DNA of 64,000 nucleotides from a virus (IMGVR_UViG_3300029349_000001:32001-96000), one strand, 5' to 3'; positions 9,148 to 60,798 are shown, counted from the first letter of the stretch. Numbers and translations: made by a program. The notes: generated by a model from the letters alone, not told the origin.

Positions 9148-9159
9148 TAGAGACATAAT

Positions 9160-11584: not shown

Positions 11585-14500
11585 ATGCCAATAACTATAA
11601 ATAAGCAATATCAATTTATTAAATTTTTAGGATCTTCTAATCTAAGTCTCAATAGTTTATCTGGTTCTATTACTAATCAAATTGCTATAATTTATGGTAT
11701 TTCCGCAGATGGTTCTTCATATTTATCATGGAGCAACAGTGCTTTTTCTAGTTTACAAAATCTAGAAACTTATAAGACATATCTAATTGTTAGCAATAGT
11801 GCAAATCCTAATTATACTCTATATTCAGGCAGTGAAGTAGTCGATGCGAGCACGAGTACAGAGATTACTACCACTAGATCAATGGAAACATATAGGGGCG
11901 CAACACCTCTGACACTAAGTAGTGCTAGTTTTAAAAATAATATTTTGTTGATATATGGTATTTCTAGTGATGGCTTAGGTTTCGTATCTTATAGTCCATC
12001 GTCTCAATTTAATAGTTTAACAACACTACAACCAGATGTTGGATATGAGTTTGTTACCAACGGCACTCCTTTTACACTGTGGTTGGCTCCTGGAGCATCT
12101 CCCACCCCAACGCCAACCCTCACAGCAACACCAACACTAACGCCGACCAATACCCCAACAAGAACTCTTACCCCAACACCTACTTTAACAGCAACTGTTA
12201 CTGCCACACCAACGCTCACACCATCATTAACGCAAACCAATACGCCCACACGCACACTCACTCCTACTCCTACGCTTTCTCCCACTCCAACGAGTAGTCC
12301 TCTATTAAGTCCTAATTTTGCTAATTATAATAATCAATCTATTTTTAAAGGACTAGCTAATAGTAGTACTGTTGGTACTAACGGAGCAAAAAGCTCGTAT
12401 GGTTGCCATGACATGAGTGGAAATGTTTCGGAGTGGGTTGGTCAAGCCACCGATGTTTGTTTAAGAGGCGGTAATTTTTCGTCTTCTTCAAATGATATTT
12501 CAAAATACGGTAGATTAGTAGTAGCCGCTACCGTATCTGATCCAGCCACGGGCTTTAGAATTGCTACGTCTGGCACAAATGGCGACCACCTATCACTAGG
12601 TAATTTCATTACTATTGGAAATACTAATAACGTATCTGATCCTGATACGAGTTATGGCGCTGTGGCATATTCTTATCGCATATCTAAATTTCAGGTTACC
12701 AATGATGAATATTGTGCTTTCTTAAATAGTCAAGCAAAATTAGATACAAAAGCATTATATAATTCTTTAATGAGTAACGATGCGGAAAGAGGAGGTATAT
12801 TGAGAGGTGGATCACCAGGATCCTATTACTATGTAAGCAAAATGCATCATGGTAATAAACCAGTTAATTATGTTAATTGGATAGATTGTGCCAGATACTG
12901 TAATTGGATACATAATGGAGCAACAGACACTAGCGATACAGAAAATGGAGCATATACCATCAATCCGTTGGGAGCTGTGGCAAGAAACACAGGCGCTAAA
13001 TACTGGATACCTCTAGAAAATGAATGGTATAAGGCAGCTTTCTATGATCCAGCCTCTACCAGTTACTATTTATATAGCACACAAAATAATAGCACACCAA
13101 CAGCAGCATCTCTTAACACTAATGGAGATGGGCCATTTTCTCCATCTTCAGCTTTTGATGATGGACAAATACTTATTGCTGATACAACCAAGATGGTGGT
13201 ACTAGATACTAATAATCCTAGTAGTAATATTGTAAATATATCAGATATTAATACCACTCCACATAGTCTAACAGTTGGTCCGTTTAGAGATGATGCTTTT
13301 ATCTCTAATTCCGCCGGTCTTATAGATGTGGTGAGCCTAACTGCACAAAATCCTAGTGGCTGGGCCAAGGTTTTATCTTTAGCGGCTGGATCTGACGCTA
13401 GAAAAATATTAGTTAGTTCTGACGGATCAAGATTATATTGTTTAAATTATAATGATAGAACTATTACCGTATATGACCTACTCGGATCCCCTAGGTATGC
13501 TACAAGACTCATTATGGATTATCGCGGTTCGGGCATAGTATACGACTTTTGCAATGGAGAAAATGCAGACACAATCTATGTAGCCTGCTCTAACGGATAT
13601 GTAGTCAGAACCACTATTACTGGATCTTCTTATAATAATAATATTTATTATTACTATCATGGTTTTATTAACCAGCCAGTATCAATGACTTTCTTACAAA
13701 ATCAAATATATGTAGCCTTGGTTGATGGTGCTACTACTATTAAAACCCGCAATATAAATAATGGCGCAGAAGCGACTATTAGTATTGTTGGATTAAGTAA
13801 TTTTGGACAGGCTTCTACAGTGACTGTTGTTAGATTGGCTTTATACAATGATCCTTATAACAAATATTTAGTTTTGACAGGAGAAATATCTAATCTTAAT
13901 AGAGGAGTTATATATTATTATAATCCCCTATATAACAGACAAATGTCTATCAGTTATACCGATACTGTATCAACAATCGGTATTTATACCAATATTGCAC
14001 AAAATAAAGACTATGCATATTTATTTGCCGGTAATAGATTGCTAACTTTTGATTCAACTAATAAATATTTTAGAACCTCGGTCGTTGTATCTCCCACTTT
14101 CAATAGTTCTATTATTAGAGATGTTGAGTTTAGAAGCAATACCGCGATACCAGCACCGTCTCCTTCTCCAACACCAACTAATACTACTACTCCAACCAGA
14201 ACACCCACTAATACGCCAACAGTCACCCCAACCAACACTGTTACCCCTACATTCACTTCTACCCCAACACCAACTCCAACACAAGAACCTCCTGTAGTAT
14301 ATTCTAACTCTATGGTGGCGGCTGTGGGTGCTAACGATGTGGGCCAATTAGGAGACGGCACTTATGGTTCATCCAAGGTCTTTAAGCATATAACTGCCCC
14401 ATCAGGAAATGTATTTAATTATAATGTAAGAGCTAGTTCTTTAGGTAGTCATAATCTCATTATTGATTCCAGCAATAGACTTTGGGGATGGGGTAATAAC

Positions 14501-15388
14501 GATAGGGGTCAAGTTGGTCCGTCAGCATGGACTAGTGTGGCTCCTTCTGGTAGTGGTTTGAATACCAATCCTTCTACTATGGCATATGATACAGTTAGTA
14601 ATAGGTATGCTATATTTGGTCTTTCAAGTAATGTTGTTAATGTTTCGACTAATGGTACCGTTTGGACAAGTGCAACTATCGGAACAGCTCCTCCATCTTT
14701 AAATTGGACAACATCTATCGGATGGAATAACAATACTTCCACAGGTGGAGGATCTCCACAAACTAATCAATACTCTATCTTTGCATTAGCTAATAACTCC
14801 AATATTCTTGCAGCATATAGCAATTCAAATAATACCTGGGTATCACCCAGCTTGTCTGTTACAAGAAATTGGACCGCTATGGTACAATCAAGAAATAAGA
14901 TTTTAGCTTTTGCTAGCAATAGCAACAATGTATTTACTATAGTTCCCGGAGCAAATAATACTATTACAACATCTGACGTAAGCCTAGGCTTAGGGTCTTT
15001 AAATGTGTTCTGGAAAACTGCGGCTGTTAATAGTAATGGCTCTACTATACTAGCAATTGGGTACGATTCAAGAACCATTGTTCGTAGTACTGATAGTGGC
15101 GCTTCTTGGTCGCAGGCTGGTGTTTCTTTACCTTTAGTTGCCAAATGGGAGAAGATTATTTGTTCTAACAACAGATGGATCTTAATCGCTTCTGATCAGG
15201 ATAGTGTATATACTAGTGATGATAATGGATCTAATTGGACAGCTCGCTCAACCAGCAGCACCAACCCGTCTTGGACTCAAATATCAGTCTATAATAATAC
15301 CATTATTTTAGTTGGATTAAATAATAACTATTACTTAACAAGTACTGATAATGGCACATCTTGGAAAAAACGATTCTTAGGCGTATAA
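11585..15388 (+). CDS. Multidomain adhesin/fibre: permuted FGE-sulfatase-like domain, beta-propeller, two RCC1 repeats, BNR-like repeats
   Basis: DMSGNVSEW/LRGG/GFRIA and VTNDEY/ENEWYKAA motifs; GANDVGQLG and GNNDRGQVG; S.D.G..W repeats; PT tracts. Confidence 0.7.
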   Translation: MPITINKQYQFIKFLGSSNLSLNSLSGSITNQIAIIYGISADGSSYLSWSNSAFSSLQNLETYKTYLIVSNSANPNYTLYSGSEVVDASTSTEITTTRSMETYRGATPLTLSSASFKNNILLIYGISSDGLGFVSYSPSSQFNSLTTLQPDVGYEFVTNGTPFTLWLAPGASPTPTPTLTATPTLTPTNTPTRTLTPTPTLTATVTATPTLTPSLTQTNTPTRTLTPTPTLSPTPTSSPLLSPNFANYNNQSIFKGLANSSTVGTNGAKSSYGCHDMSGNVSEWVGQATDVCLRGGNFSSSSNDISKYGRLVVAATVSDPATGFRIATSGTNGDHLSLGNFITIGNTNNVSDPDTSYGAVAYSYRISKFQVTNDEYCAFLNSQAKLDTKALYNSLMSNDAERGGILRGGSPGSYYYVSKMHHGNKPVNYVNWIDCARYCNWIHNGATDTSDTENGAYTINPLGAVARNTGAKYWIPLENEWYKAAFYDPASTSYYLYSTQNNSTPTAASLNTNGDGPFSPSSAFDDGQILIADTTKMVVLDTNNPSSNIVNISDINTTPHSLTVGPFRDDAFISNSAGLIDVVSLTAQNPSGWAKVLSLAAGSDARKILVSSDGSRLYCLNYNDRTITVYDLLGSPRYATRLIMDYRGSGIVYDFCNGENADTIYVACSNGYVVRTTITGSSYNNNIYYYYHGFINQPVSMTFLQNQIYVALVDGATTIKTRNINNGAEATISIVGLSNFGQASTVTVVRLALYNDPYNKYLVLTGEISNLNRGVIYYYNPLYNRQMSISYTDTVSTIGIYTNIAQNKDYAYLFAGNRLLTFDSTNKYFRTSVVVSPTFNSSIIRDVEFRSNTAIPAPSPSPTPTNTTTPTRTPTNTPTVTPTNTVTPTFTSTPTPTPTQEPPVVYSNSMVAAVGANDVGQLGDGTYGSSKVFKHITAPSGNVFNYNVRASSLGSHNLIIDSSNRLWGWGNNDRGQVGPSAWTSVAPSGSGLNTNPSTMAYDTVSNRYAIFGLSSNVVNVSTNGTVWTSATIGTAPPSLNWTTSIGWNNNTSTGGGSPQTNQYSIFALANNSNILAAYSNSNNTWVSPSLSVTRNWTAMVQSRNKILAFASNSNNVFTIVPGANNTITTSDVSLGLGSLNVFWKTAAVNSNGSTILAIGYDSRTIVRSTDSGASWSQAGVSLPLVAKWEKIICSNNRWILIASDQDSVYTSDDNGSNWTARSTSSTNPSWTQISVYNNTIILVGLNNNYYLTSTDNGTSWKKRFLGV

Positions 15389-15398
15389 TATAAGTATA
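15380..15398 (+). promoter_or_regulatory. Putative late-promoter motif variant overlapping the stop of 11585
   Basis: GGCGTATAATATAAGTATA followed by AAGGA RBS. Confidence 0.4.
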
Positions 15399-15414
15399 AT
15401 ATCAAGGATACATT

Positions 15415-18400
15415 ATGGCTAATTTTAGAAATCTTATCACAGGAAATGGTATACTTCTAGGACTGTCTGATGATAATCAGATGTATGTTTTAGGGGATAA
15501 TGCTAATAAAAATACAGTATCCAGAATCGGTAATGATGGTCCACTATACGCCGCCGGATGGAAATCAGCATCGGTTAACGCCAAGCATTCCGCAGCTATT
15601 ACCAATAATGGACAACTATATGTATGGGGAGACAACTCCTATGGTCAATTAGGCATAGGAGGATCAGTAGCGTCTTCTATGGATCCTATATTATTAGATA
15701 ATAGTGAATGGCTTAGTGTAAGTTGTGGAGCAAGACATACCGTAGGTATTAAAAAAGATGGATCTTTATGGGGTTGGGGATCTAATCAATTTGGTCAATT
15801 AGGACCAAACGCAGCAACTATACAATATGTACCTTATAGAATATCCGAGCCTTCTTTTAGCAACGTGGCCTTATTGTTGCACCTTAATGGTTTTGCTGGA
15901 TCAACTACGATTTCTGATAGTTCTTTATTATCTAAAAATGTTAAGATTATAGGATCTGGGAGACTATCTTCTACTCAGTCTAGGTTTGGAGGTATATCTT
16001 ATTATTATGGAGATACTGGCAGCAGTGGTATAGATGCCAACGGCTCATATGATGATCTAAAATTTGGTACTGGTGACTTTACAATAGAGGGATACTACTA
16101 CTTAAATAGTAATAGTAGCGACAACTTCTTATATGATACAAGACATCCCTGGAATGCATCAGGAGGATCTTACGCATATGTTACTAGTACTGGCGTACTT
16201 AATGTAGAAGGTCAGACCACTATTATTATGCCAACCAATCGTTGGGTTCATGTGGCTTTTAGTAGACAAAACGGTATATTAAGAACATTTTTTGATGGAG
16301 TATTAGTATATACTCAATCTTCAACCACTAACTACGATTCGGGATACTGCTATATTGGTGCTGCTGCTTACTATCCTGCTGGTGCCGCACCCTTCAGAGG
16401 TTACATAGACGAGGTAAGGGTTACTAAGGGAATTGCTAGATACGTATCAACCTTTACGGCTCCCACAATACCCTTTATGGACTCTAGCGATTCTTATTTA
16501 AAAATTGCTGCTGGTTCCTTCTTTAATTTAGCTATTAAAGCAGATAACACTCTTTGGAGTTGGGGCGATAATTCGTATGGACAATTAGGCACATCTTCTA
16601 CTGTCGCATCTAGACCAACACTTACACAAATTGGTACAGATAATAATTGGGTTGATATAGTATGTGGAGATAGTCATGCTCTAGCAGTTAAGTCCGATGG
16701 CTCTTTATATTCCTGGGGATATAATGCTTTGGGTCAGTGTGGTGTTGGTACTTCTAATGAGAGTTATAATAGTCCTATAGCTGTAACCGGGGTTCACGAT
16801 GGAGCTACTTATCGTCCAATTTTAGGCATTACTTTAGATAATGAAAAAAGAATAGCTTGTGGAAAAAATCACAGCTTTATTATCGCAAGAACAGCACTAG
16901 GAGATAATATCCTATTCGGCACTGGAGATAATAGCAACGCCCAATTAGGCACAGGAAACAATGATTCTAAAACAGTATTTACTGCCGTTGATCTTAGTAG
17001 AAGATTCATCTCTACAGATGCTGGTGTGAATCATAGTTTAGGCAAACTAGACTTACCAGAAAATCAACCAACTCCTAGTCCAACTCCCACACTAACTCCA
17101 ACACCAACAGTTACCGCAACCAATACTCCAACTGTAACACCAACTAGAACCGCTACGCCAACACTAACGGCCACTCCATCTGCAACCCCGGTTGGACCAC
17201 CACCTTCTCCGTCCCCAACTGCTACAGTATCACCCACTCCTTCTTTACCAGCTAGGGCAGGCTTTAATTGGTTTCCTATCAATATTGTTTCCAGAGCTTT
17301 TAATAGTGTAGTATACGGCGCTAAGCTCGATAGATTTATTGCTATGCCGAGAAATGGCAATATTCCAGCCATATCAGAAAATAGTACTGCCACAAGTTGG
17401 ATTGACACAAACTCCTTGCCTTCTAATATGGCTCTGCCAGAAGTTATAGATGCTAGACACTACTTGTTTTCATATGATCCTTCTTCGAGTCCAAGAGCTA
17501 ATGGTAACACGATAGCAATCTCTAAAAATGGGTTCGACTGGATTAACAATACTGTAGTAAGAACAGACTCTAATAGTTATAGTATAGTAAGCGCATCGTC
17601 TTATACTAGTTTGTCTAGTGTTGATGGACACATTGTTGCTGTGGGACCAGTTGCTAATAGTGGTAACAGAACAGCTCTTAGATATAAAAAAATTACAGTT
17701 AAGGATACTGATAATATTTCAGCCAGTATGATCCCAGAGCGAGACTTTGCTCCATTCTTAGATGCAAATAATCGTCCGATCTTAACGATAAATACAGCTA
17801 ATTATAATAATCATGTGGGCAGCGTAACAGATGTAAGATATAATGGTGGTTCTAGCGCATATGGCGCTTTCGATATGACAGGCAACGTAGATGAATGGAC
17901 AGGAACATCTGGTACCGGAGGAACATCATTCTTTACTTTGGGAGGAAACTATACTGCTAGTAATCCATCCAAAGATAATGTGACTACAACACAATCTTCG
18001 TCGTCTTCTATAGGGACAAGAGGTTTTAGACTTGCTAGTGTAACAAATCCAACTAATAATTATAGCACATTTGTGTCTGTTGGAGATATCAACAATGATT
18101 CGGATAACGGTGTGGGTTCTGTTACTTCTAATTATCGTATTGGTACATATCCTGTGACAAATTTGGAATATGTTGAATTTTTAAATGCTGTTCAGCCCAC
18201 CGGCAGCATTAGTGAATTACACAATATTCCCTCCTTAGCTGATAAAGACGTAGGAATTAAATTACCATATACGATATCTAATACTATAGAGAGTAATTCA
18301 ATCTACTCATATGGCATAGCGATTAATCCTAATACCAATAGAGCATATGTATGTAAATACTATGACAGTAGTTTACAAGTTATAGATCTTAATACTTCTA

Positions 18401-20571
18401 CGATTATAGCAACTATTAATGTTGGTAGTCAACCATGGGATGTTATATGTGATCCAGCCAACAATAGAATTTATGTTTCTGTATCCGGCGGCGCAAGAAT
18501 TAGAGTGATTGACGGAACTAATAATACTATTATAGGTAATATTACAACACAGAGTTTTCCACGCTATATGGCATTAGATAGTGCCAACAATAAATTGTAT
18601 GTGTCATTTTCTACGAATAGTTTTAGTGTGATTGATGTTACAACCATTACGACTAATATGTTGGTACAAACAACTTCTTCTGTCATCGGTACTCCATTAG
18701 GTATGGCCGTAGATTCCACTAACAATAGACTATATATTGGGTATTCTGATTCCACAGGGGCGTATATTAGGGTTGTGAATGCTTCTAATATTAATACGAT
18801 TATATCAACCATTTCTTTACAAAGCAATACGTATCCTTTTGATCTAAAGCTGAATAGCGATAGAAGTAGACTTATTGTAGCCGAAAGCAATAGCAAGTCA
18901 TTAACTATTATTAATACTACAACTAATTCTATTATTGCTAGAATACCATTATCAACTACTACAATAGCTGGCTTCTCACTAGATGCACAAAACAAGGCCT
19001 ATATTGCAGGATATGGGGACAATAGTTTAATAATAGTAGATACCAATACCTCAGCTTTGGTTGGAAAGGTTGTATTATCTAATACTAATATTAATCCACA
19101 AGACGTGGCCATTGCTAATAATAAAATATATATAGTTAATTGGGGCGATAGTAAGGTATTTACTGTAGAAGTATCTAATACCTATACGACTATACCAGGA
19201 ATGGAATATAAACCAGTATCTTATATAAATTGGTATAATGCTGCTCGTTATTCTAATTGGTTGTCAAACGGAAAACCTGTTGGAGTACAGTCCTCAACAA
19301 CAACAGAAAATGGCGCATATCAGCTCAATGGAAATACTGGAAATCCCACACTAAATACAACTAATCCCAATACAGGATCTGCTCCGGCTTATTATCTACC
19401 TTCTAGAAATCAATGGTATAAAGCAGCATACTATAAGGGTGGTAATACCAATGCTGGATATTGGCTATACGGAAACTCATCAGATACATTATCTCCAGCA
19501 TATTTATTCGGCAATAGTCTAGAGAATCTACCAGCCGCCAGTAGTGTTGTCAAAGTTAGAAAAGACGGACTAGTGGTGGTTGCTGGACAAGGATTCGTGT
19601 TGATGTCTAACATGGTTCCAAATACTGTACCAAACTGGAATTATTATCCTCTTACACAACTAACTGAACCTACAGACATATTATTTGGGGATAATAACAG
19701 AATCGTTATTCTACAAAGCACACTCGGAGTCGTATCTGCTAATAATAGATACTATTATAGTGACGCTGTAAATTACTCCAATAGTTATCCTTCTGTTAGT
19801 TGGACAATAGGAAATCTGCCCGCGACAACCCTAACTACATCTGTTGGAGCATCCGCTTATGACAATGGTGTGTTTGTGGTCATACCTCTTTCTGCTTCAT
19901 TATCTTCGTCTTCTTTTGTTTCTTCTGATGGTATTAATTGGAATACTATTTCTTCTAGTGTGCTATCTAATAAGATATGGAGAGGCTTAGCTAGTAAGAG
20001 TAATCTATTTGTAGCGGTTGGAGACAATTCACCACTAGCTGCTATTAGCTATAGTGATATCAGAACCACACCAACCCCCACAGCAACGCCCACAGTTACT
20101 CCATCAAATCTAGGTATCGTAATTACACAACAACCGAAAAATGTTGATATAGTTCTCGTGGCAGATAATAATGCTGGAGGTGTCGCGGTCTTTAATGTTA
20201 CCGCTAGTTCTAGATCTCCAATTGCATATCAGTGGTATGAGTCTGTTAGTAATGGGCCGTTTACCGCTATTCCAAATGCTACGCTCAATAGTTTATCTAT
20301 CAATAATATTACTAGTAGTAAGCATGGTAATAGATATTATGTTAAATTAACATCTGGTACTATTGTAGTAGATAGTAGTATCGCAACCCTAAATGTATTC
20401 ACAAATTCACCCATTACTATTCTACAACAACCTAGTAATACCACTGCGGTTAGTGCTGCGGCATCTTTTACCGTATTGGCCACTATCAACTATCCTTCAC
20501 CAACCCCTACAATAACAGCTACTAGTACTCCAACGCCGACCCCAACAGTTACCCCTTCTAGGTCTGTATGA
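15415..20571 (+). CDS. Multidomain adhesin/fibre: RCC1 repeats, LamG, permuted FGE-like domain, YVTN propeller, Ig-like domains
   Basis: Five GxNxx(G/A)Q(L/C)G RCC1 repeats; LamG WVHVAF...GYIDEVRVTKG; YVTN-like NVGSQPWDV...RIYVS; ITQQP/YQW Ig motifs. Confidence 0.72.
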   Translation: MANFRNLITGNGILLGLSDDNQMYVLGDNANKNTVSRIGNDGPLYAAGWKSASVNAKHSAAITNNGQLYVWGDNSYGQLGIGGSVASSMDPILLDNSEWLSVSCGARHTVGIKKDGSLWGWGSNQFGQLGPNAATIQYVPYRISEPSFSNVALLLHLNGFAGSTTISDSSLLSKNVKIIGSGRLSSTQSRFGGISYYYGDTGSSGIDANGSYDDLKFGTGDFTIEGYYYLNSNSSDNFLYDTRHPWNASGGSYAYVTSTGVLNVEGQTTIIMPTNRWVHVAFSRQNGILRTFFDGVLVYTQSSTTNYDSGYCYIGAAAYYPAGAAPFRGYIDEVRVTKGIARYVSTFTAPTIPFMDSSDSYLKIAAGSFFNLAIKADNTLWSWGDNSYGQLGTSSTVASRPTLTQIGTDNNWVDIVCGDSHALAVKSDGSLYSWGYNALGQCGVGTSNESYNSPIAVTGVHDGATYRPILGITLDNEKRIACGKNHSFIIARTALGDNILFGTGDNSNAQLGTGNNDSKTVFTAVDLSRRFISTDAGVNHSLGKLDLPENQPTPSPTPTLTPTPTVTATNTPTVTPTRTATPTLTATPSATPVGPPPSPSPTATVSPTPSLPARAGFNWFPINIVSRAFNSVVYGAKLDRFIAMPRNGNIPAISENSTATSWIDTNSLPSNMALPEVIDARHYLFSYDPSSSPRANGNTIAISKNGFDWINNTVVRTDSNSYSIVSASSYTSLSSVDGHIVAVGPVANSGNRTALRYKKITVKDTDNISASMIPERDFAPFLDANNRPILTINTANYNNHVGSVTDVRYNGGSSAYGAFDMTGNVDEWTGTSGTGGTSFFTLGGNYTASNPSKDNVTTTQSSSSSIGTRGFRLASVTNPTNNYSTFVSVGDINNDSDNGVGSVTSNYRIGTYPVTNLEYVEFLNAVQPTGSISELHNIPSLADKDVGIKLPYTISNTIESNSIYSYGIAINPNTNRAYVCKYYDSSLQVIDLNTSTIIATINVGSQPWDVICDPANNRIYVSVSGGARIRVIDGTNNTIIGNITTQSFPRYMALDSANNKLYVSFSTNSFSVIDVTTITTNMLVQTTSSVIGTPLGMAVDSTNNRLYIGYSDSTGAYIRVVNASNINTIISTISLQSNTYPFDLKLNSDRSRLIVAESNSKSLTIINTTTNSIIARIPLSTTTIAGFSLDAQNKAYIAGYGDNSLIIVDTNTSALVGKVVLSNTNINPQDVAIANNKIYIVNWGDSKVFTVEVSNTYTTIPGMEYKPVSYINWYNAARYSNWLSNGKPVGVQSSTTTENGAYQLNGNTGNPTLNTTNPNTGSAPAYYLPSRNQWYKAAYYKGGNTNAGYWLYGNSSDTLSPAYLFGNSLENLPAASSVVKVRKDGLVVVAGQGFVLMSNMVPNTVPNWNYYPLTQLTEPTDILFGDNNRIVILQSTLGVVSANNRYYYSDAVNYSNSYPSVSWTIGNLPATTLTTSVGASAYDNGVFVVIPLSASLSSSSFVSSDGINWNTISSSVLSNKIWRGLASKSNLFVAVGDNSPLAAISYSDIRTTPTPTATPTVTPSNLGIVITQQPKNVDIVLVADNNAGGVAVFNVTASSRSPIAYQWYESVSNGPFTAIPNATLNSLSINNITSSKHGNRYYVKLTSGTIVVDSSIATLNVFTNSPITILQQPSNTTAVSAAASFTVLATINYPSPTPTITATSTPTPTPTVTPSRSV

Positions 20572-20573
20572 AT

Positions 20574-20591
20574 GGTGTAATTACTAATATA
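20574..20591 (+). promoter_or_regulatory. Putative late-promoter motif
   Basis: GGTGTAATTACTAATATA just after the stop of 15415. Confidence 0.55.
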
Positions 20592-20617
20592 ATTCATTTT
20601 AAATTAAAGGCTAAACT

Positions 20618-23600
20618 ATGGGATTAACATATCAATGGCAAGTATCAACAGATAATACAGCGACAGTATTCGTTGACTTGCAAGACGGTCCATTGGTATC
20701 TGGAACCAAGACTCAAACACTATTATTTAACAATCTAACAGTAGCTGATAATAATAAAAAATATCGCGTAATTATCGGTAGTACAGATTTTAATGTGGCT
20801 CCTGTTGTTAGTGATGCTGCTACTCTTTTCACAGCTCCCTCTATTACTTTAAGTACAATCCCAGATATAGCCACAACAGCGACAACAGCAACATTTTCTG
20901 TTAGCGGAGTAGCTAATACTGGTACTATTAGTTATCAATGGCAAAAAAGAGTACCTTGCGCCCCAACTGCTACAGAACCATGTTTTATTAATTTAGTAGA
21001 TCAAACAGGTTCCGTTAGCGGTGCTCTTACTCCAAATCTTATTTTAACTGGATTAACAGCTGCGGTACATAATAATTCTCAATACCGAGTTGTTGCCAGC
21101 GCACAGTGTTGTGGAACAACCGCCATTACACAATCATCAAATGTCGCAACACTACAAGTTGCCACACAAGGACAAACACTATTTATTACTAAAGACTTAA
21201 CAGATGCAATAATAGCAACAGACAAAACTGCTTCTTTTAATATAGAGATACAAACGACAACAACCAATTCGACACCGGTCCCAGTAACATTCGGATGGCA
21301 AAAATTAGTTGCTGGGAGTTGGGTAAATGTAACTAATAATCAACCGATACAAAGTTCAGTTATTAATCCTACATTATTGCTATACAAACAAACACTAGCT
21401 ATTACTAGTGCTATTGATAGCGAATCTTATAGAGTTGTGGTAAACGATGGAAGGTCATCCGCCACCAGCGCTACCGCAAAGAGTAAGAATCCCGCCACAT
21501 GTACTGATTGTGGAGGTAGTGGTACTGGAGATCCACACTTTTATATAGGCGGGAATTACGGCTTTGATGATAATCCGATTATTAACGGACACAAAGAAAT
21601 TGTAATGCTTTATATAAAAAACAAAAAAGACAATACCGAGCACGTATTAACTTGCAAAAATACTGGAGCTTTCGGCAAGTCTTCTCCATATAACGTAGAA
21701 AGAACTTCATATACACAATTTAAAGATGGTAAAATTGTTGGAGCCAGAGTAGACAACGGAAAAGCAGATATGATGGGTGTGGCAATGATGAACGCCGCTT
21801 CTGGACGTTTTGCTTTTACTTGGTCTGTTCTAAACCCCTCTAATATCCACAAAGCTCAAGACTTAGATATAGTTATTGGTGGTGCGTGGTATTGGATGTG
21901 CAAGTCCCTAATTCAATATCTAAAAAAGAATCCGTCTTTCATGAGTTTAGGATGGCCATATATTGGTTGGATTCATGCTGATGGCATCGGTTTGGGATTG
22001 GCTCCATATAATCTTATCAGAGAGAATTTTGAAATAGATAATTTATATCTTAAAAATAGTGGAAGTGCGAATATTGACGGTCTTTATATAGCTTCTAGCA
22101 AAGATGATAAGAATAGTACTAGATACAATAAAGACAATAGTGCATATTCCATAATTAGAGATCGCGGACTATGGCAAATCAAAACCAGGGTTCTGTCTCC
22201 TATCGCAATGACTAAAATTTCTGATACGCAATTTAGCATCAGCACATCTCGCTATATAGATGCAGAAAGTCTAAGTGTTGGCCTTGGGGTTGGTAGTAGT
22301 GCGGCTGGCGTTGTTGCTGGAAATCCTATCATATCATCTATCTCGTATAAATATCCTGCTCAAGCTATGGCGAGAGAAGATGTAGCGCCTATCACTGCTG
22401 AAATCACCGTAAGTGGTGGGCAGATTCTACAAAGCGGCTCCGTTATTTTTGGATATTTTGTAGACACCACAAACACTAGTAATAGTATTACACTACCTAA
22501 TCTCTTTACAGCTTCAGATATATATATTGGTCAAAAAATTACTATTAGCGGAGCTACATCTGCTAATACTACAATTACTAATATTAACGGGAATATATTA
22601 ACACTAAGTAGTAATTGTACTGCTACTGGTAGGTTCCCACTAGAAATTATTTATGCTGAATCTTTTGAAGACAATACTACTTCTCCAGATTTATCTGGGG
22701 GATGGTTAAAAAATAAAAATATTATTCCAGACATTAAATTATTACCATTATTATCTAGTCCAGAAGGCATATCTAAAATTGCAGAAGATATCACCGCCAA
22801 TCCTCGTTTTTGGCATGAGTTGTCTTTGGCTCTATCGGGCAAGCCTCTAGACGGAACTCCAGTAAATAGTATAGTAGCACAACCCAAAGATACTATCTCT
22901 GTCAATGGAATAGCGTCTTTTACTGTGGTTGCTGAATTGGCCAGTTCCAAATATCAGTGGCAAAAATCCACAGACAACGGAGTGTCTTGGATAGATATAG
23001 CTGGAGCTACTAATGCTACACTTGTAGTTAATGCTATTAAATCTGATAACGGATCGTTGTTCAGAGTAAAAGTTGACACTGTTCTTACCAGTAGTAGTGC
23101 TAAGTTATCTGTTCCATCTACTCTTAGAGTCCAACAAGAACCATCAAATACTAGTGCTATTAATCTACAGGCCGTATTCGGTGTTGTTGCTAGCGGAGTA
23201 CAGCCGATTACATATCAGTGGCAAAAATCCGACGATAATGGCGCAACATTCTCTAATGTGCCAAACAACAATCTACCTACCCTTACCTTGAGTAATCTTA
23301 AAGCTGAAGATGATAATGATCTATATAAAGTTTCTGTGGCCGACGGAGCCGGAGATTCCTATACATCAGCCGCTTATAAGCTCTTTATTAATCCAGTCTT
23401 AAGTATCACATCGCACCCGACTACACAAACAGCATCCGAGGAAGAAACAGCTACTTTTAGTGTTTCTGGCACTTGCAATAACGGGTTGTTTAAACACCAA
23501 TGGGAAGTATCTACCAATAATGGCGTATCATATGCGGCCGTTGGAGAACCTTCTTATTCTGGTAATTTAAATTTAAGTGGTCTCAAGATATATGATGATA

Positions 23601-25291
23601 ATAAGCTGTATAGAGTTAAGCTTATTTCTGATATAAAGAATAACTTTGTTTATTCTAGTGGTGCTAGATTATTGGTACCTAATAGTCTTACAATAGTTAC
23701 TCAGCCAGCAAATACTATATCTTCTAGCGGCAATGCAACATTTTCTGTTGGAGCAAACTCATCTCAGCCACCTCTAAGTTACCAGTGGCAGACACAAGCA
23801 CCACAGTCCAACAATTGGATAGACATAGTTTCTGGTACTGGGTCTACTTTAAATGTAACAGGACTAAGGCTCGTTGACGATAATACTAAATATAGAGTTA
23901 TATTAACAGATCAAAGAGGTTCTGTATATAGTCAACAGGCTATCGTAGACACGACACCCCAAATTTCTATCACTCAAAATATTGCTGGATATACTAGCAA
24001 TAATTATAAGCTTAACTTAACTGTTGTGGCATCTGTTTTGACCACAACACTAGAAAATACTTCTGGTAGTTTGGTATATAGTTGGGAAAAAGCAGATCCA
24101 GGATCCAATTTATTTGCCCCACTTACTGGTATTCCATCTAATCAAAATTACCTATTAGGAGATCTAAAGGTGGCAGATAGTGGAGTAAAGTATAGAGTAA
24201 AATTAAGCCTACCCGGCGCACGAGACCTATACTCCAATACTGCACAAATAGATGTGCCTCCATCAATAACTGTTAATGTCAAAACTCCATTTTTAGCAAA
24301 GACCAACTATCCCAATACGGATATTACTTTATCAATTGATGCGACAACTAAAGTTCCACCACTAAACTATCAATGGCAAAAAGCAAGCACCACAAGTAAT
24401 CTTATTAATTATCAATTCCCTAATAATGATCCTTTCTATGATAGAGTAGGACTATTTATGGAAATGAGTGGTGTTTCTGGCACGAGGGCTTTTGTGGATT
24501 CGACAGACAAAACATATATAATACCGTATAGAGATGATTCGGTATATAATCAATATGCAGATATTAAATTATCAAATTTAGATTTCAAGTCTGCTCCAAC
24601 TAGTGCTAGATTTAATGATATATACAGTCATCTTAGAGTTTTTGATAGTGGCAATAATTTGTATTTTGGTAACAAGAACTTTACTATAGAATATTGGTAC
24701 AAGCCAACTGAGTATTCTGAAATGAGTGTTGTATCTCGAAGAAAGGGTAATGTTTGGCCTGTTTACGGTAATGTGGGCTGGACTTTAAGTAGTACTCGTT
24801 TTAGAGCTAAAATAGGACAGACTTGGAGAGATGATTGGATTGATGATAATGGGAATTTATCTATTATACCAGTGAACGAATGGACACACGTAGCCTTAAC
24901 CCGCTATAATAATACATATCGTTTATTTAGAAATGGAGCTATGGTTGGCAGCTTCTTCAATAACGAGACTTTGGATGAAACATCTGGCCCTCTAGTAATT
25001 GGCACCTCAAGTTCGGTTCAAATTAATAGTACAGAGAATGGTTACAGTTTGGTGGGCTTTTTAGATAATCTAAGAATTACTGTTGGATTGGCTAGATATA
25101 CACAGAACTTTGTTCCAGATACATTAATAGATACAGACTATCAAGTAACCATAGCCAATAATAATTTTACTAATATTCCCAACGCAACAGGAACTACGCT
25201 AAAATTAGAAGGATTAACAAGCAATAATAATCTAGAACAATATAGGGTTGTTCTAACCGATCCTGTTTCGACTGTTATAGTAGAGAATTAA
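20618..25291 (+). CDS. Poly-Ig-like adhesin/fibre with GDPH motif and LamG domain
   Basis: About nine QP...(Y/H)QW(Q/E)...YRV Ig-like repeats; GDPHF; LamG (EWTHVALTR...LDNLRITVGLARY). Confidence 0.7.
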   Translation: MGLTYQWQVSTDNTATVFVDLQDGPLVSGTKTQTLLFNNLTVADNNKKYRVIIGSTDFNVAPVVSDAATLFTAPSITLSTIPDIATTATTATFSVSGVANTGTISYQWQKRVPCAPTATEPCFINLVDQTGSVSGALTPNLILTGLTAAVHNNSQYRVVASAQCCGTTAITQSSNVATLQVATQGQTLFITKDLTDAIIATDKTASFNIEIQTTTTNSTPVPVTFGWQKLVAGSWVNVTNNQPIQSSVINPTLLLYKQTLAITSAIDSESYRVVVNDGRSSATSATAKSKNPATCTDCGGSGTGDPHFYIGGNYGFDDNPIINGHKEIVMLYIKNKKDNTEHVLTCKNTGAFGKSSPYNVERTSYTQFKDGKIVGARVDNGKADMMGVAMMNAASGRFAFTWSVLNPSNIHKAQDLDIVIGGAWYWMCKSLIQYLKKNPSFMSLGWPYIGWIHADGIGLGLAPYNLIRENFEIDNLYLKNSGSANIDGLYIASSKDDKNSTRYNKDNSAYSIIRDRGLWQIKTRVLSPIAMTKISDTQFSISTSRYIDAESLSVGLGVGSSAAGVVAGNPIISSISYKYPAQAMAREDVAPITAEITVSGGQILQSGSVIFGYFVDTTNTSNSITLPNLFTASDIYIGQKITISGATSANTTITNINGNILTLSSNCTATGRFPLEIIYAESFEDNTTSPDLSGGWLKNKNIIPDIKLLPLLSSPEGISKIAEDITANPRFWHELSLALSGKPLDGTPVNSIVAQPKDTISVNGIASFTVVAELASSKYQWQKSTDNGVSWIDIAGATNATLVVNAIKSDNGSLFRVKVDTVLTSSSAKLSVPSTLRVQQEPSNTSAINLQAVFGVVASGVQPITYQWQKSDDNGATFSNVPNNNLPTLTLSNLKAEDDNDLYKVSVADGAGDSYTSAAYKLFINPVLSITSHPTTQTASEEETATFSVSGTCNNGLFKHQWEVSTNNGVSYAAVGEPSYSGNLNLSGLKIYDDNKLYRVKLISDIKNNFVYSSGARLLVPNSLTIVTQPANTISSSGNATFSVGANSSQPPLSYQWQTQAPQSNNWIDIVSGTGSTLNVTGLRLVDDNTKYRVILTDQRGSVYSQQAIVDTTPQISITQNIAGYTSNNYKLNLTVVASVLTTTLENTSGSLVYSWEKADPGSNLFAPLTGIPSNQNYLLGDLKVADSGVKYRVKLSLPGARDLYSNTAQIDVPPSITVNVKTPFLAKTNYPNTDITLSIDATTKVPPLNYQWQKASTTSNLINYQFPNNDPFYDRVGLFMEMSGVSGTRAFVDSTDKTYIIPYRDDSVYNQYADIKLSNLDFKSAPTSARFNDIYSHLRVFDSGNNLYFGNKNFTIEYWYKPTEYSEMSVVSRRKGNVWPVYGNVGWTLSSTRFRAKIGQTWRDDWIDDNGNLSIIPVNEWTHVALTRYNNTYRLFRNGAMVGSFFNNETLDETSGPLVIGTSSSVQINSTENGYSLVGFLDNLRITVGLARYTQNFVPDTLIDTDYQVTIANNNFTNIPNATGTTLKLEGLTSNNNLEQYRVVLTDPVSTVIVEN

Positions 25292-25295
25292 TCAC

Positions 25296-28200
25296 ATGAC
25301 ACAAATTTATACATCTAATACTGTTTTAGTCAAAGCAAAAGCGCCTATTGTTAATTTTTCTGAAGGCGACTCCGCGACATTAGTAGCTGATATTAGTATT
25401 ATATGGATCAACCCAAGCTCGGCACAAAGGTTTTTGACTCATAAATGGCAAGAGTCCAATGACGGAGGAGTAACCTGGAGAGATATTAGCTCAGGTATTG
25501 CGGACCATCCACTATCAACAAATAATATAGCTCCAACCAAAACCGTATCTTTGCTCGATAATCAACTTGCAGATCTAGAATTATCAGAGTTTAATATTGC
25601 CAAAACTAAGCCAATAGTAGCTTCTCTCACCATCGATAACGTACTATTAAGTCAAGATAATTATTTATACAGATGCATAGTGTTGTTATATAACAATGAT
25701 ATTAATACAATTGAGAGTGCTGGTACTAGTGAAAATATTTTCCTCAATATTTCAGAGAAAAAAACAGGTCATTTATTACCTAATTTTGATATTCCTTGGG
25801 ATCCTATGAATCCTCGTGGAGTAATCAAATCTGGAAATCTTAAGTTTGATCAAAACACTAAGATAGAGTTATTTAAGCTTACAAAAGATGCTTGTGGTTC
25901 TCAGTGGAGAATTATAGAGGTAGGCTATGGAACTCAGTATATCAACGGCAATATCACTAATGGTATGCCAGTAGGCTTACCCAAAACTTATGGCCCCAAC
26001 GATCAAACATATCCGGGCTATATGGAATTACAGTTTTATTGTAATAATAGTTGGGTAACACAGGAATCTTGGATATCTTTAGTGGGCAATGATGAACACG
26101 TATTTGAAAAATATGGACCAATATCTCCAGTAACCGTATCTATCAACGGAGAAGCTTTAGTTAGTCAAACATCTTTAGGTACGAAAGATAATCCTTTAGT
26201 TATTAAACCAACACCCGGTGCAACAGGAGGTTCGTCTCTAGATGTTACTGGTGTTTCAGATAATAGCACCGTATCTGTATCATGGAATGGAACAGCCCTA
26301 GGGTATAGTAACACATTAGGTATCCAACAAGCTGGAACACAAACCATAACCGTACCATCATCCTTCGTTCTGCCTGTACAAGTTACTATTACAGGAGGAT
26401 GTGATGATGACTTGGTAGTTAATGGTCAGGTTATTAATCAGAATAATTTAGCTGATAATGTTAACTATACTTTTACTTGTGAGACCAGAACATTTACTGT
26501 AAGTGTTTACAATGCTATGGCTGGCGGTACTGCTTATGACTATAATATTTCTTTTGCTGGGACTCAAAGCGCTAATAGTGCTGTTTCCGCTATTAGGTCT
26601 GACACTACTAATATTTTAACAATATCACAAGCTTCAGAAACTAAAAATGTAAGTGTTAATAGCAATAATAATAATTGGACCGAGGCTGGTATTAATGTAC
26701 AAGAAGGATCTAGACTGTTTATATCTGCTACTGGCAGCATACAGTGGTCTACTAATAATTTTAGCAGTCCTTCTGGTGTTGGTTCTGGTAATGCTGTTTT
26801 ATATAGCGGCATTCCCCAATCAGCTTTAGTTGGAAGAATAGGAACAACTGGAACGCCATTTTATATAGGAGATTACTATAATAGCTTTGCTAATGGTAGT
26901 GGTCCTCTATTCTTGTCTGTCAATGATAGTAATAAGAATGATAATTCTGGATCATATGCGTCTATCATAAAATATGCAACACCAGATCCTTTGGGCATTA
27001 AAGTTACAACATTGAATTCTGAGCCTTATGATTCTACCATTCAAGACCTAGATTTTTCCAAGGTGAGCTTATTATTAAAATCCGATAATGACTCATTAAA
27101 TGATGTTTCGGCCAAGCCAAAATCTTTTACTAGTACCAACGTTAGTTTTAGTAGTCAGATAAATACTTTTGGTGGTTATTCTGCATACTATGGAGACAGT
27201 GGATATTCTGTAGCTAATTCCGATAGTTCTCTAGGATTCTCTGGTGATTTTACTATTGAAGGATGGTTTTATTTCTCTAAGAATAATGTTGGATACCAGG
27301 GTTTAGTTTCCACATATAGAACCGGAGACATTAGTGGATGGATATTGGTTTTAGAGAGTAATAACACTTTAAGATTTTACGCTACTAATGCTAATATTAC
27401 TTGGTATTGGCCCCTATCTATATCTTCTAATTATACTCCGCCAACAGAGAAATGGACATATATTGTTGTACAAAGACTTGGTTCCTCTGTGAAGATGTTT
27501 GCTGATGGAGTAGAAGTTGGATCAACTTCTAATAATCTGGATATAACAAGCGGCTCCAAGATAGAAGTAGGCGGTTATCAATACTTTCCGGGTGGACGTA
27601 GATCATTACAAGGATATGTTGACGAAGTTAGAATTACTAAAGGATTGGCCAGATATCCACAGAGCAACCCGCCACTACCAAACAAACCCTTTCCGAAACG
27701 ATCATATAGTGCTACACAAATAATAGATATCTCTGGTAGTCAGAAATCAGCCACTCCAGTATACGATAGTAACGGAAATTTTCTTTACTACGAATTTAAC
27801 TCCAAGAATAGTTACATAGGTCCGTACAACGAGCCTGGACAGCTTAGTTTGGTTTATGGGTATGTTTCTGGCTCTCCGATAGTCGCACAGACACCGGCAG
27901 AAGGATATTTCCAAGCTTTTGATGGCAGTGATAGATATTTCAGAAAACTTGGGGTTTATGATTTAGATTGCTGTTATATGGGTGGCTACACACCAGATGA
28001 CGGATACTATATATTATCCAGGAGAGCTGACGGTCAGTATGTAGTATCAGAAAGCGTTAGATGGTATGCTGCTAATGGATATGCTGTTGGAACCATAGTG
28101 CCATATCCTCCTCAAATTAATCAAGTAGGAGATAATGGACATCCTAATAATAGCGCATCATGGAGATCGTGGAGTTGGAGTAATTCGTGCTGTAATAATG

Positions 28201-29654
28201 ATGGTACTAAAAATTATTTTGAATTAACAGATGAGGTTCTCACCCCATTAACCCCAACACCTACTGTTACTCCAACAAGTATAACACCAACACCCACTCC
28301 TACAGTAACATCAACGGTAACAGCAACACCAACCATTACTCCGTCTGTTACCACTTCATCTTTACCTCCTGCTTTTGATACTCTATATAGTGATGTTGTA
28401 TTATTGATGAATATGTCTGGAACTAATAATAGTAAAAATATTATTGATTCATCATTATTGAATAATACTATTGTTGCTACTGGTAATGCTGCTATTTCTA
28501 CCTCTCAAAGCAGATTCGGAGGATCAAGTCTATTAGTACCAGAAGCAACATCTAGTCGCAATGCAATATATTTGTCAGCTTCTAATAATTTTAATTTTGG
28601 TTCTGGTAATTTTTCTGTAGAATTTTGGCTTAGACAGAACAGCACTCCGCAATCTGGTTCTCGCGTGTTTCAAACTAGCGAAAACAACGATACTACTTCT
28701 GGTGTGGATATTTATTATCCAACCAATAGTAATTCTTTATTAGCAAAACTATCAGATAATAGTAATAATACTGTGGTATTATCTATGGGGGCCACAGATA
28801 CATCAGTGTGGAATCATTATGCTCTAGTAAGAAATAACCACAATATCATTACATATAGAAATGGTGTTCAGGTAGCCTCGCAATATGCAGTAATGAATTT
28901 ATCAAACTCTTCTGGTAATGTGGTTATCGGAGGCAATGCTACAACCGGTCCAAATAGATCAATTAATGCTTACATAGATGACATGAGAGTTACTAAGGCG
29001 TCAAGATATACTAGTAATTTTACTAGTCCGGTATTTCAGTTAGTTAATGCTGGACCGCCAGTTACTCCATCAAATACTGCAACTCCAACCAATACGCCCA
29101 CAGTCACAGTCACACCAACATTAACAGCATCAAATACTCCTACACCTACTGTTAGTGCAAGTGTAGGATTTATATCATCGCCAACACCCACTTCCACAGT
29201 AACTTCTACGGCGACACCAACCTCTTCGCCTCCAGCGCCGCAAGCGTTAACATTTTCTGCTCTTCAGGCTGGGTGTGACCCAAGATGGCAGCTAGGCAAT
29301 ATTCCAGCCAATACCACATCTTTAAGATTGACCTCTTCTGGTTCACATCGCGGTGGTGCGTTTAGTAATATTGTGTCAACATTCCCGATTGATACTAATA
29401 GTACACAAATTATAACTGGTCCTACGAATAACTCTTGGAGTATACATATTTCCCACTTCGGAGCCTCTTTGCCGGGTGGTTCGGCTCCCGGAGCATCCAT
29501 AAGAGGATATTTTGATACCGGGACGCGGGAGGGCAGCAATTTTTGGAATACGGAACACAACTTTACGGCAAGAATAGAAGCGCTAGATGTGAGCAATAAT
29601 GTGATAGGCATTATAAACAATACTAGTTGGATTAAAGACGATTGCGACGACTAA
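25296..29654 (+). CDS. Adhesin/fibre with Ig-like, LecA-like lectin and two LamG domains
   Basis: Ig-like HKWQ...YRC; W..AGI.V..G...ALVGRIG...L.VND...DNSG lectin-like segment; two LamG copies; PT tracts. Confidence 0.68.
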   Translation: MTQIYTSNTVLVKAKAPIVNFSEGDSATLVADISIIWINPSSAQRFLTHKWQESNDGGVTWRDISSGIADHPLSTNNIAPTKTVSLLDNQLADLELSEFNIAKTKPIVASLTIDNVLLSQDNYLYRCIVLLYNNDINTIESAGTSENIFLNISEKKTGHLLPNFDIPWDPMNPRGVIKSGNLKFDQNTKIELFKLTKDACGSQWRIIEVGYGTQYINGNITNGMPVGLPKTYGPNDQTYPGYMELQFYCNNSWVTQESWISLVGNDEHVFEKYGPISPVTVSINGEALVSQTSLGTKDNPLVIKPTPGATGGSSLDVTGVSDNSTVSVSWNGTALGYSNTLGIQQAGTQTITVPSSFVLPVQVTITGGCDDDLVVNGQVINQNNLADNVNYTFTCETRTFTVSVYNAMAGGTAYDYNISFAGTQSANSAVSAIRSDTTNILTISQASETKNVSVNSNNNNWTEAGINVQEGSRLFISATGSIQWSTNNFSSPSGVGSGNAVLYSGIPQSALVGRIGTTGTPFYIGDYYNSFANGSGPLFLSVNDSNKNDNSGSYASIIKYATPDPLGIKVTTLNSEPYDSTIQDLDFSKVSLLLKSDNDSLNDVSAKPKSFTSTNVSFSSQINTFGGYSAYYGDSGYSVANSDSSLGFSGDFTIEGWFYFSKNNVGYQGLVSTYRTGDISGWILVLESNNTLRFYATNANITWYWPLSISSNYTPPTEKWTYIVVQRLGSSVKMFADGVEVGSTSNNLDITSGSKIEVGGYQYFPGGRRSLQGYVDEVRITKGLARYPQSNPPLPNKPFPKRSYSATQIIDISGSQKSATPVYDSNGNFLYYEFNSKNSYIGPYNEPGQLSLVYGYVSGSPIVAQTPAEGYFQAFDGSDRYFRKLGVYDLDCCYMGGYTPDDGYYILSRRADGQYVVSESVRWYAANGYAVGTIVPYPPQINQVGDNGHPNNSASWRSWSWSNSCCNNDGTKNYFELTDEVLTPLTPTPTVTPTSITPTPTPTVTSTVTATPTITPSVTTSSLPPAFDTLYSDVVLLMNMSGTNNSKNIIDSSLLNNTIVATGNAAISTSQSRFGGSSLLVPEATSSRNAIYLSASNNFNFGSGNFSVEFWLRQNSTPQSGSRVFQTSENNDTTSGVDIYYPTNSNSLLAKLSDNSNNTVVLSMGATDTSVWNHYALVRNNHNIITYRNGVQVASQYAVMNLSNSSGNVVIGGNATTGPNRSINAYIDDMRVTKASRYTSNFTSPVFQLVNAGPPVTPSNTATPTNTPTVTVTPTLTASNTPTPTVSASVGFISSPTPTSTVTSTATPTSSPPAPQALTFSALQAGCDPRWQLGNIPANTTSLRLTSSGSHRGGAFSNIVSTFPIDTNSTQIITGPTNNSWSIHISHFGASLPGGSAPGASIRGYFDTGTREGSNFWNTEHNFTARIEALDVSNNVIGIINNTSWIKDDCDD

Positions 29655-58273: not shown

Positions 58274-58301
58274 ATTATATGAATCGGGCCTGTGGTGTCA
58301 A
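58274..58301 (-). promoter_or_regulatory. Sigma70-type promoter for ssb
   Basis: TTGACA (58301-58296), 16-nt spacer, TATAAT (58279-58274) on the minus strand. Confidence 0.75.
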
Positions 58302-59920: not shown

Positions 59921-59925
59921 ACAAT

Positions 59926-60621: not shown

Positions 60622-60796
60622 TTACTTGTACCGTTGTATCCTCTGTAAAAAATGACTTAACTGACGAGTTATTTACTTCTTGAGCATTGATAGACTTGCA
60701 GCAACTTACCCTTACTGTTTCTATCTTAACATATTCCATTCCATTGACAAAAAATCTATCATTAACACCAAGTTCATTAAATTTCTTATCTACCAT
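60614..60796 (-). CDS. 60-aa hypothetical protein
   Basis: Fills the gap between dnaE-N and the exonuclease; GGAG RBS. Confidence 0.65.
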   Translation of the reverse strand: MVDKKFNELGVNDRFFVNGMEYVKIETVRVSCCKSINAQEVNNSSVKSFFTEDTTVQVNA

Positions 60797-60798
60797 GA

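Follow-up and report, generated by a model that had tools for sequence, protein, structure and literature searches.

Conserved gene boundaries inside propeller and Ig domains across four giant proteins of a freshwater phage

Domains shared between polypeptides and a four-gene phage locus

Phage fibres can be built from several proteins, as is that of T4 (gp34-gp37). In other assemblies, one domain is itself built from two polypeptides. The Ig-like subunits of chaperone-usher pili (Fim, Pap, Caf1) lack their last (G) strand and receive it from the next subunit, whose N-terminal extension provides it, and in Sec13-Nup145C, Seh1-Nup85 and Sec13-Sec31 an open WD40 propeller is closed by the strands of its partner, receiving one blade. 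Besides pili and nucleoporins, this principle of the trans-completed domain has one solved phage precedent, namely Tuc2009. The crystal structure of its baseplate tripod reveals that the C-terminal beta-hairpin of BppU completes a sheet of BppA domain 2, forming a composite titin-like Ig domain (PMC4742702). A conserved docking peptide is reported for the anchor-branch receptor-binding proteins of Klebsiella phages (PMC13352976), and chain-like fibres joined by beta-sheet augmentation have also been described (PMC13730344). Here, we analyse four consecutive viral genes on a 64,000-nucleotide (nt) stretch of DNA (IMGVR_UViG_3300029349_000001:32001-96000; the window), whose three boundaries each fall inside a domain according to sequence comparison. 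The four open reading frames (ORFs) lie on the plus strand at 11585-15388, 15415-20571, 20618-25291 and 25296-29654, in reading frames 2, 1, 2 and 0, with spacers of 26, 46 and 4 nt at the junctions between genes 1 and 2 (J1), 2 and 3 (J2) and 3 and 4 (J3). Their products add up to 1267 + 1718 + 1557 + 1452 = 5994 amino acids (aa), exactly as given in an earlier note made from the sequence, which also proposed that successive products link head-to-tail by completing each other's folds.

We consider it probable that the four proteins form an ordered non-covalent chain joined by trans-completed domains, with free C-terminal ends that carry swappable guest modules. J2 would resemble the BppU-BppA pair of Tuc2009: that pair belongs to a phage adhesion device in which two C-terminal strands of one protein complete the Ig-like sandwich of the next, and J2 has the same geometry at the sequence level, with strands A-B donated from upstream. 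The Tuc2009 device has a single joint, belongs to a small Gram-positive siphophage and has not been presented as a case of a gene split within a recognisable family of repeats, whereas here three consecutive joints would order four giant proteins, one joint would be a propeller and guest modules would sit on the free ends. It is these features, together with the breadth of their conservation in a freshwater phage clade, that would be new; the earlier note did not recognise the assembly logic as described for phage virions, but with the composite Ig domain of Tuc2009 (PMC4742702) it is not entirely undescribed there. Literature searches turned up no account of phage fibre genes whose boundaries divide RCC1 or Ig domains.

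By sequence, J3 resembles donor-strand complementation, in that the G-strand motif is absent from the last Ig domain of gene 3 and present at the start of gene 4. The joints here differ in being heterotypic, each used once and without a self-polymerising subunit, and J2 would donate two N-terminal-side strands from the upstream protein; moreover, neither a chaperone nor an usher is expected in cytoplasmic phage assembly. Because the sequence of each joint is unique, homopolymerisation is not expected. The predicted logic of J1 is that of the trans-completed propellers, with the differences that J1 is of RCC1 type and lacks three strands of its last blade, that the partner brings 1.5 repeats and a whole guest propeller, and that the ring may have seven or eight blades. 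The fibres of T4, the Klebsiella phages and A1002 share with the proposed chain an ordered assembly via short conserved terminal peptides and the exchange of distal modules. In the latter two, docking is onto complete domains, whereas here it is a canonical domain family that is divided between two proteins.

The three cuts and their conservation

Judged by sequence, the cut at J2 is unambiguous and separates strands B and C of an Ig domain. The last folded element of gene 2, PITILQQPSNTTAVSAAASFTVLATIN, corresponds to strands A-B of the Ig repeat that recurs in genes 2-4. This half Ig domain (20410..20568, plus strand) consists of strands A-B (aa 1666-1692) and a 26-aa Pro/Thr tail ending TPSRSV. 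Gene 3 opens with MGLTYQWQVSTD, corresponding to strand C, and its first 75 aa (20618..20842, plus strand) match strands C-G. In canonical Ig repeats, about 34 residues (strands A and B) precede the YQWQ motif; in gene 3 there are four (MGLT). More than 140 unsplit homologues were found, in which the residues aligned to gene 3 residue 2 onward sit within long Ig arrays, and in each of the six examined strands A-B precede the cut position in the same chain, the Ig domain being contiguous across it. Gene 3 aa 1-760 was compared exhaustively, without a profile, with 1.84 billion proteins; this recovered three ortholog representatives (50% clusters; 72, 41 and 38% identity), each matching from residue 1, and no fused ortholog of the gene 3 N-terminus.

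At J1, sequence comparison places the cut inside an RCC1 array, within the second of eight repeats. The RCC1 fragment of gene 1 (aa 906-985; 14300..14539, plus strand) comprises two GQLG hairpins and one G..H inner strand, in the strand order B-C-D followed by A-B-C; it matches Pfam RCC1_2 (E=9e-7; 28.9 bits, cutoff 22) and RLD profile positions 2-69. It is followed by a BNR/Asp-box-like propeller (aa 1000-1267; 14582..15385, plus strand), a guest between the two parts of the cut RCC1 repeat, which ends 8 residues past its last Asp-box and has a predicted local distance difference test score (pLDDT) of 80-90 in the AlphaFold2 model of L048 described below. Gene 2 then opens on an inner strand, and its first 548 aa (15415..17058, plus strand) form an RCC1-like propeller by profile, with a LamG domain inserted at about aa 150-357. 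The six hairpins and seven inner strands of this region amount to six full repeats plus an orphan last inner strand (GVNHSLGKL), ending at profile position 362 of 363. Its matches to WD40_RLD (E=4e-58; 197.8 bits, cutoff 150) and RCC1 (E=1e-42) place it among the RCC1-like families (Pfam PF00415, PF13540, PF25390). The RCC1 blades do not all lie in one polypeptide, however; the first 69 positions of the profile are matched by gene 1, and this is so in all six genomes examined. Across genes 1 and 2 the repeats total 8 units, not 2 + 5 = 7. By this count of repeats, the 1.5 repeats of gene 1 cannot form a domain alone, and gene 2 alone provides six blades and one strand.

At J3, the last Ig domain of gene 3 (strands A-F; 24290..25288, plus strand), which carries a nested LamG jelly roll, ends with YRVVLTDPVSTVIVEN. 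It stops past strand F and a short extra strand, and sequence comparison detects no G-strand motif there. Gene 4 opens with MTQIYTSNTVLVKA, which fits the G-strand motif [VI]Y[ST]..A..L.V of the other repeats and leads directly into strand A of the next Ig-like domain. The matching segment, IYTSNTVLV, lies in an N-terminal plug (MTQIYTSNTVLVKAK; 25296..25340, plus strand), and the motif spans gene 4 residues 4-14. Each junction therefore cuts inside a domain, as the earlier note had it; the 'several unrelated folds' that it saw cut come down to two fold types, propeller and Ig.

The same four-gene split with the same termini was found in eight contigs from different samples (the window, L005, L006, L044, L045, L047, L048 and L049), at identities down to ~40-50%. 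Gene 2 starts with M[AV]N[FLM][RK].ITGN in 11 ortholog clusters (49-99% identity), gene 3 with M..Y[QK]WQ in all three 50%-cluster representatives (38-72% identity) and gene 4 with MT[QK]IYT.NT in 15 of 16 clusters (45-98% identity); the sixteenth, P0416, has a later start residue, perhaps because its gene call is truncated. No fused gene 4 ortholog was found among proteins of 798-2541 aa. A search for fused genes 1 and 2 or 2 and 3 among proteins of 3008-5000 aa returned only generic RCC1 giants (24-41% identity), a weak indication that such fusions are absent. In three other lake metagenomes, contigs span J1, J2 and J3, with no indel listed there. The spacers of relatives range from 11 to 47 nt at J1, from 4 to 56 nt at J2 and from a 4-nt overlap to a 4-nt gap at J3; stop codons and frame relations differ too, and Shine-Dalgarno (SD)-like sequences lie ahead of most starts, all of which shows that initiation is separate. 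The cuts thus separate real genes and are not sequencing errors, recent lesions, frameshifts or sites of read-through as a conserved mechanism. The earlier note was right to doubt single-base errors, and the conserved split points that it asked for in relatives exist.

The pieces at the cuts are also unusually constrained. Ranked among all 15-aa windows of their own protein, the first 15 aa stand at the 97.9th percentile of conservation in gene 2, the 96.5th in gene 3 and the 99.9th in gene 4; the N-terminus of gene 1, which is not a joint, stands at the 62.9th. The best-conserved part of gene 1 is its RCC1 fragment (0.70 vs 0.53 overall). The C-terminus of gene 4 is hypervariable, without conservation, and is likely the distal, host-specific tip. 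At the DNA level, the first 30-40 nt of genes 2, 3 and 4 (15415-15450, 20618-20660 and 25296-25330) are nearly invariant, synonymous sites included, in genomes only ~50% identical in protein, which may reflect a constraint on translation start or use as a recombination linker.

The spacers carry signals of their own. That of J1 (15389..15414, plus strand) contains TATAAT and, 8 nt ahead of the ATG, AAGGA; that of J2 (20572..20617, plus strand) contains GGTGTAATTACTAATATAAT at 20574-20593 and then AAAGG, such that the SD-like sequences of both junctions lie 7-9 nt ahead of the ATG. The GGTGTA-N8-TATAAT arrangement of J2 has one other copy in the window, with 0.22 expected, and four of the five relatives examined retain its GGTGTA hexamer there (five of six genomes including the window), even if within coding sequence. 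At J1 there is only a generic -10-like TATAAT, and such sites are frequent in the AT-rich window (96 vs 76 +/- 7.5 in shuffles). Of the late-promoter-like motif and ribosome-binding site that the earlier note assigned to two junctions, the ribosome-binding site thus stands at both J1 and J2 and the promoter-like motif at J2 alone. GGTGTA is otherwise rarer than expected in the window (14 vs 27). Four of its eight plus-strand copies are intergenic (3033, 20574, 30648 and 31461), three just upstream of plus-strand genes and two followed by TAATATAAT, and it may be a phage promoter element.

The spacer of J3 (25292..25295, plus strand) is 4 nt long, and relatives have 3 nt or a gene overlap of 1 or 4 nt (across genomes, +4, +3, +3, -4, -1 and -4 nt), as is typical of translationally coupled genes. 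Gene 3 ends in conserved codons, GTAGAG[AG]A (..VE[NE]; region 25270-25295), which lie 7-10 nt ahead of the gene 4 ATG and may double as its ribosome-binding site, in which case the conservation of the gene 3 C-terminus would be partly at the RNA level.

A proposed chain of four proteins and its rivals

In the chain that we propose, each of genes 1-4 would be translated separately into a structural protein of the tail-distal adhesion apparatus, in an uncultured freshwater phage of ~160-230 kb. After synthesis, the four products would join non-covalently and in gene order, since each boundary domain is encoded in two pieces. At J1, the RCC1 strands of gene 1 would pair with the orphan last strand of the gene 2 propeller and close the ring; at J2, strands A-B of gene 2 would complete strands C-G at the start of gene 3; and at J3, the first 14 residues of gene 4 would give the G strand to the last Ig domain of gene 3. 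The upstream chain would stop just past its half-domain at each joint, so that its free C-terminus could carry a guest without interrupting the chain: a BNR propeller at J1 and, depending on the genome, none, a BNR propeller or two LamG domains at J2. Lectin-like and Ig-like domains would line up as the beads of an ordered chain that has side branches and ends in a variable tip. The exchangeable fibre of the earlier note fits the variable guests and tips, although the chain is better described as linear with side branches, because the guest domains sit on free C-termini.

Of the structure predictions for J1, that of a complex supports this scheme and that of a read-through fusion does not confirm it. 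A complex of gene 2 aa 1-560 and gene 1 aa 890-1003, predicted using ESMFold2 with an alignment for each (11 and 6 rows), scored 0.71, against 0.00 for the best of three controls; among solved complexes 58 of 80 came up to that mark, and among mismatched pairs 2 of 110. Runs shared at least 72% of their contacts, and the pLDDT of the partner was at least 54. The lowest-error contacts are formed between the orphan strand of gene 2 (aa 539-545) and the first strand of the gene 1 fragment (MVAAVG; aa 909-917), a velcro closure as expected from strand bookkeeping. The pass may partly reflect the model's memory of solved RCC1 structures, as the two halves belong to a fold solved as a single chain.

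We also modelled, using AlphaFold2, the natural in-frame read-through of J1 in L048 with stops read as Gly. The BNR propeller, the gene 2 propeller and the LamG domain were modelled well, and the gene 2 part matched UVR8 (Z 41.0, root-mean-square deviation 2.4, 326 aligned of 374), which in this model amounts to a 7-fold ring lacking about one blade's worth of residues. For J3, the equivalent read-through of L005 (stop read as Gly) reached a mean pLDDT of only 66 and placed strand F, the short extra strand of gene 3 and then a strand at gene 4 aa 9-14. A fold search with it identified nothing but the jelly roll of the nested LamG domain, a ConA-like lectin fold of generic kind (GH43 AbnA domain 4, Z 19).

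Several observations weigh against the proposed chain, most of them at J1. The eight repeats misfit a 7-bladed ring, and every solved RCC1-like domain matched has seven blades. In the ESMFold2 complex, gene 2 aa 1-30 lie outside the confident interface, and in the L048 fusion the gene 1 RCC1 fragment and gene 2 aa 1-46 have a pLDDT below 50, leaving the J1 pieces unplaced. The gene 1 side of that fusion (model residues 9-378) best matches the 8-bladed propellers of cd1 nitrite reductase (Z 21), and on this model the RCC1 fragment may pack with the BNR-like propeller of gene 1 itself. In L045, an extra gene of 1147 aa and ~370 extra residues separate the two RCC1 parts, such that gene adjacency is not strict. 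At J3, the extra strand of gene 3 after strand F (STVIV) might itself occupy the G position. The eight repeats, the unplaced J1 pieces, the match to 8-bladed propellers and the extra strand of gene 3 would suit four virion or accessory proteins that stay separate and are not chained by these pieces, the half-domains being tolerated remnants of an old gene fission or folding and pairing in other ways: the RCC1-like blades of gene 1 could join its own C-terminal propeller, the gene 2 propeller could close alone and the last strand of gene 3 could fill the G position. We regard such an arrangement as unlikely overall and most plausible at J1. Remnants would be expected to degenerate, yet the plug N-termini rank with the most conserved stretches of their proteins and the RCC1 fragment is the best-conserved part of gene 1; the first domain of gene 3 moreover lacks two core strands, and the J1 complex passed its test where the controls scored 0.00. 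The head-to-tail linking of the earlier note is partly supported, with this complex and the constrained N-termini in its favour and the low pLDDT of the J1 joint in the fusion against it. As predictions, the complex and the fusion disagree on the place of the fragment, and seven and eight blades would both be possible.

It is very improbable that the genes yield a single giant polypeptide through recoding programmed at each junction, whether by frameshift, stop read-through or ribosomal bypass. The short spacers would suit recoding, as would the genomes with only stop codons between the ORFs, that is L005 and L006, in frame at J3, and L048, the only one in frame at J1. J3 is nevertheless at +1 in the window and overlaps elsewhere (ATGA, TAATG), J2 is in frame in no relative, and both the frame relation and the spacer length differ among relatives at all three junctions. 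There is no common slippery site and there are no matched take-off and landing codons; the ATG starts with their SD-like sequences are conserved, J2 carries the promoter-like GGTGTA element and a whole gene separates the J1 partners in L045. The chance that a single giant gene is interrupted here by artefacts of assembly or sequencing, or by pseudogenising lesions of recent origin, is practically negligible. Nothing besides the domain continuity itself speaks for this, and it is refuted by conservation, with identical cuts in the eight independent-sample contigs and in many protein clusters down to 38-50% identity, as well as by the lack of any listed junction indel in the three other metagenomes.

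Guest modules, a candidate further joint and genome context

The guest at J2 varies between genomes. In L006, strands A-B of gene 2 are followed by a Pro/Thr linker, a BNR/sortilin-like propeller of ~400 residues and the stop, and in L045 and L049 by a Pro/Thr linker, two LamG domains and the stop; in the window there is only the Pro/Thr linker. Whatever guest ends gene 2, gene 3 starts at strand C in all four. The layout of J1 is parallel, with an RCC1 piece, a BNR propeller, the stop and the remaining RCC1 repeats; the ~370 extra residues of L045 lie beyond the BNR propeller of its gene 1 ortholog, and its 1147-aa gene precedes gene 2. The simplest history is one in which a guest was inserted into a loop of the host domain, an event with many parallels in cis in these proteins, followed by fission at the far boundary of the guest, which would leave a free C-terminus beside each joint where modules can vary.

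A candidate further joint lies upstream (9064..9261, plus strand). ORF 5812-9147 ends in a Pro/Thr tail (..VTPSRSSL), and ORF 9160-10464 opens with a conserved 34-aa piece and a long Pro/Thr linker; the layout is kept in L048, L047 and L044. A frequent ending of Pro/Thr tails at free C-termini is TPSRS[VL] or a similar sequence (DNA TCTAGRTCT), as in ORF 5812-9147 (9120-9147), gene 2 (20545-20571) and gene 4 of some relatives, and in the last case gene 4 may have a further partner.

A bolder account is possible, if somewhat doubtful, in which two polypeptides together rebuild the domain at every link, those of the two upstream genes probably included. The cut positions would amount to a general construction code, the conserved plugs would keep the assembly order and the free C-termini would be permissive sites for the gain, loss and swap of lectin modules, making in-domain fission an adaptive design for evolvable host recognition in large phages; one joint would be the first case of trans closure in an RCC1-type propeller, perhaps one with eight blades. 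If the joints proposed here are real, they would provide a simple, sequence-readable rule for the fixed-order assembly of very large phage adhesins without one enormous gene, and would explain how binding modules are exchanged, both at gene boundaries and at the free ends next to the joints. They would also aid the reading of the many unannotated giant 'RCC1/LamG/Ig' proteins of metagenomic phages, predicting which proteins belong to one fibre, and would offer natural split-domain pairs (Ig, propeller) as orthogonal parts for protein ligation. J1 would extend the trans-completion of propellers, as in nucleoporins and COPII, to RCC1 folds and to viruses.

The four proteins contain lectin-like and Ig-like domains with many Pro/Thr linkers, and the nesting of one domain in another is the rule among them. 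About a dozen Ig-like repeats share the YQWQ motif; there are four LamG domains besides that nested in the RCC1 propeller, as well as BNR-like and YVTN-like propellers. Gene 1 comprises two small beta domains, a Pro/Thr linker, a permuted FGE-sulfatase (C-type-lectin-like) domain, a beta-propeller, a second Pro/Thr linker and then the RCC1 fragment and BNR-like propeller. In gene 2, the RCC1 propeller with its nested LamG domain is followed by a Pro/Thr linker, a permuted FGE domain, one Ig domain and the half Ig. The FGE-sulfatase-like domains of gene 1 (aa 247-503; 12323-13093) and gene 2 (aa 794-1338; 17795-19428) are circularly permuted, with profile positions 150-193 ahead of 35-140, and that of gene 2 is also interrupted by a YVTN-type propeller. 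Gene 3 runs from its half Ig through three Ig domains, a GDPH-motif domain of no assigned family and six Ig domains to the last Ig with its nested LamG domain, and gene 4 from its G-strand plug through an Ig-like domain and unassigned domains to two LamG domains. A search of Pfam found no family for the GDPH region of gene 3, the unassigned domains of gene 4 or the N-terminus of gene 1. The motif GGSG.GDPH[FY] (gene 3 aa 304-307; 21527-21538) is kept in seven of eight orthologs, L044 having GDVH. It resembles the GDPH autocleavage site of vWD/RGM-type domains, and, if cleaved, would make a further chain break held by a shared fold.

Upstream of genes 1-4 lie a tape-measure-like ORF (5-3016) and the ORF at 5812-9147, which is baseplate-like, and DNA polymerase, exonuclease and HNH genes are encoded on the opposite strand. 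A near-identity DNA search of the INPHARED phage collection with the whole region gave no match, leaving it without a close relative in the deposited genomes of phages, and a tblastn search of phages with gene 2 gave domain-level matches only. The best of these, a 'BNR repeat protein' of Synechococcus phage BUCT-ZZ01, is a plain array of 14 RCC1 repeats and was set aside as uninformative on the split. The PHROG matches of genes 1-4 are likewise domain-level only (RCC1, Ig and LamG families). Expression was sought in the metatranscriptome run X20, where a few short contigs match across all four genes at >=99% identity; DNA carry-over is possible, and we do not take them as evidence of expression.

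The window DNA recurs in lake and freshwater metagenomes of 16 studies. Strain variants from other lake metagenomes carry in-frame or compensated indels in genes 2 and 3 (+3 nt near 18605-18610, +15 nt after 18819 and +1/-1 at 24015/24019), and in gene 4 of strain variants 27975-28249 is replaced by a variant segment. The DNA polymerase (minus strand, 58298-62676) is another split protein of the same genome: one ORF (60799-62676) matches phrog_405 positions 50-614 and a second (58298-59920) positions 622-1055, with a 231-aa ORF between them that has an exonuclease-subunit-like match.

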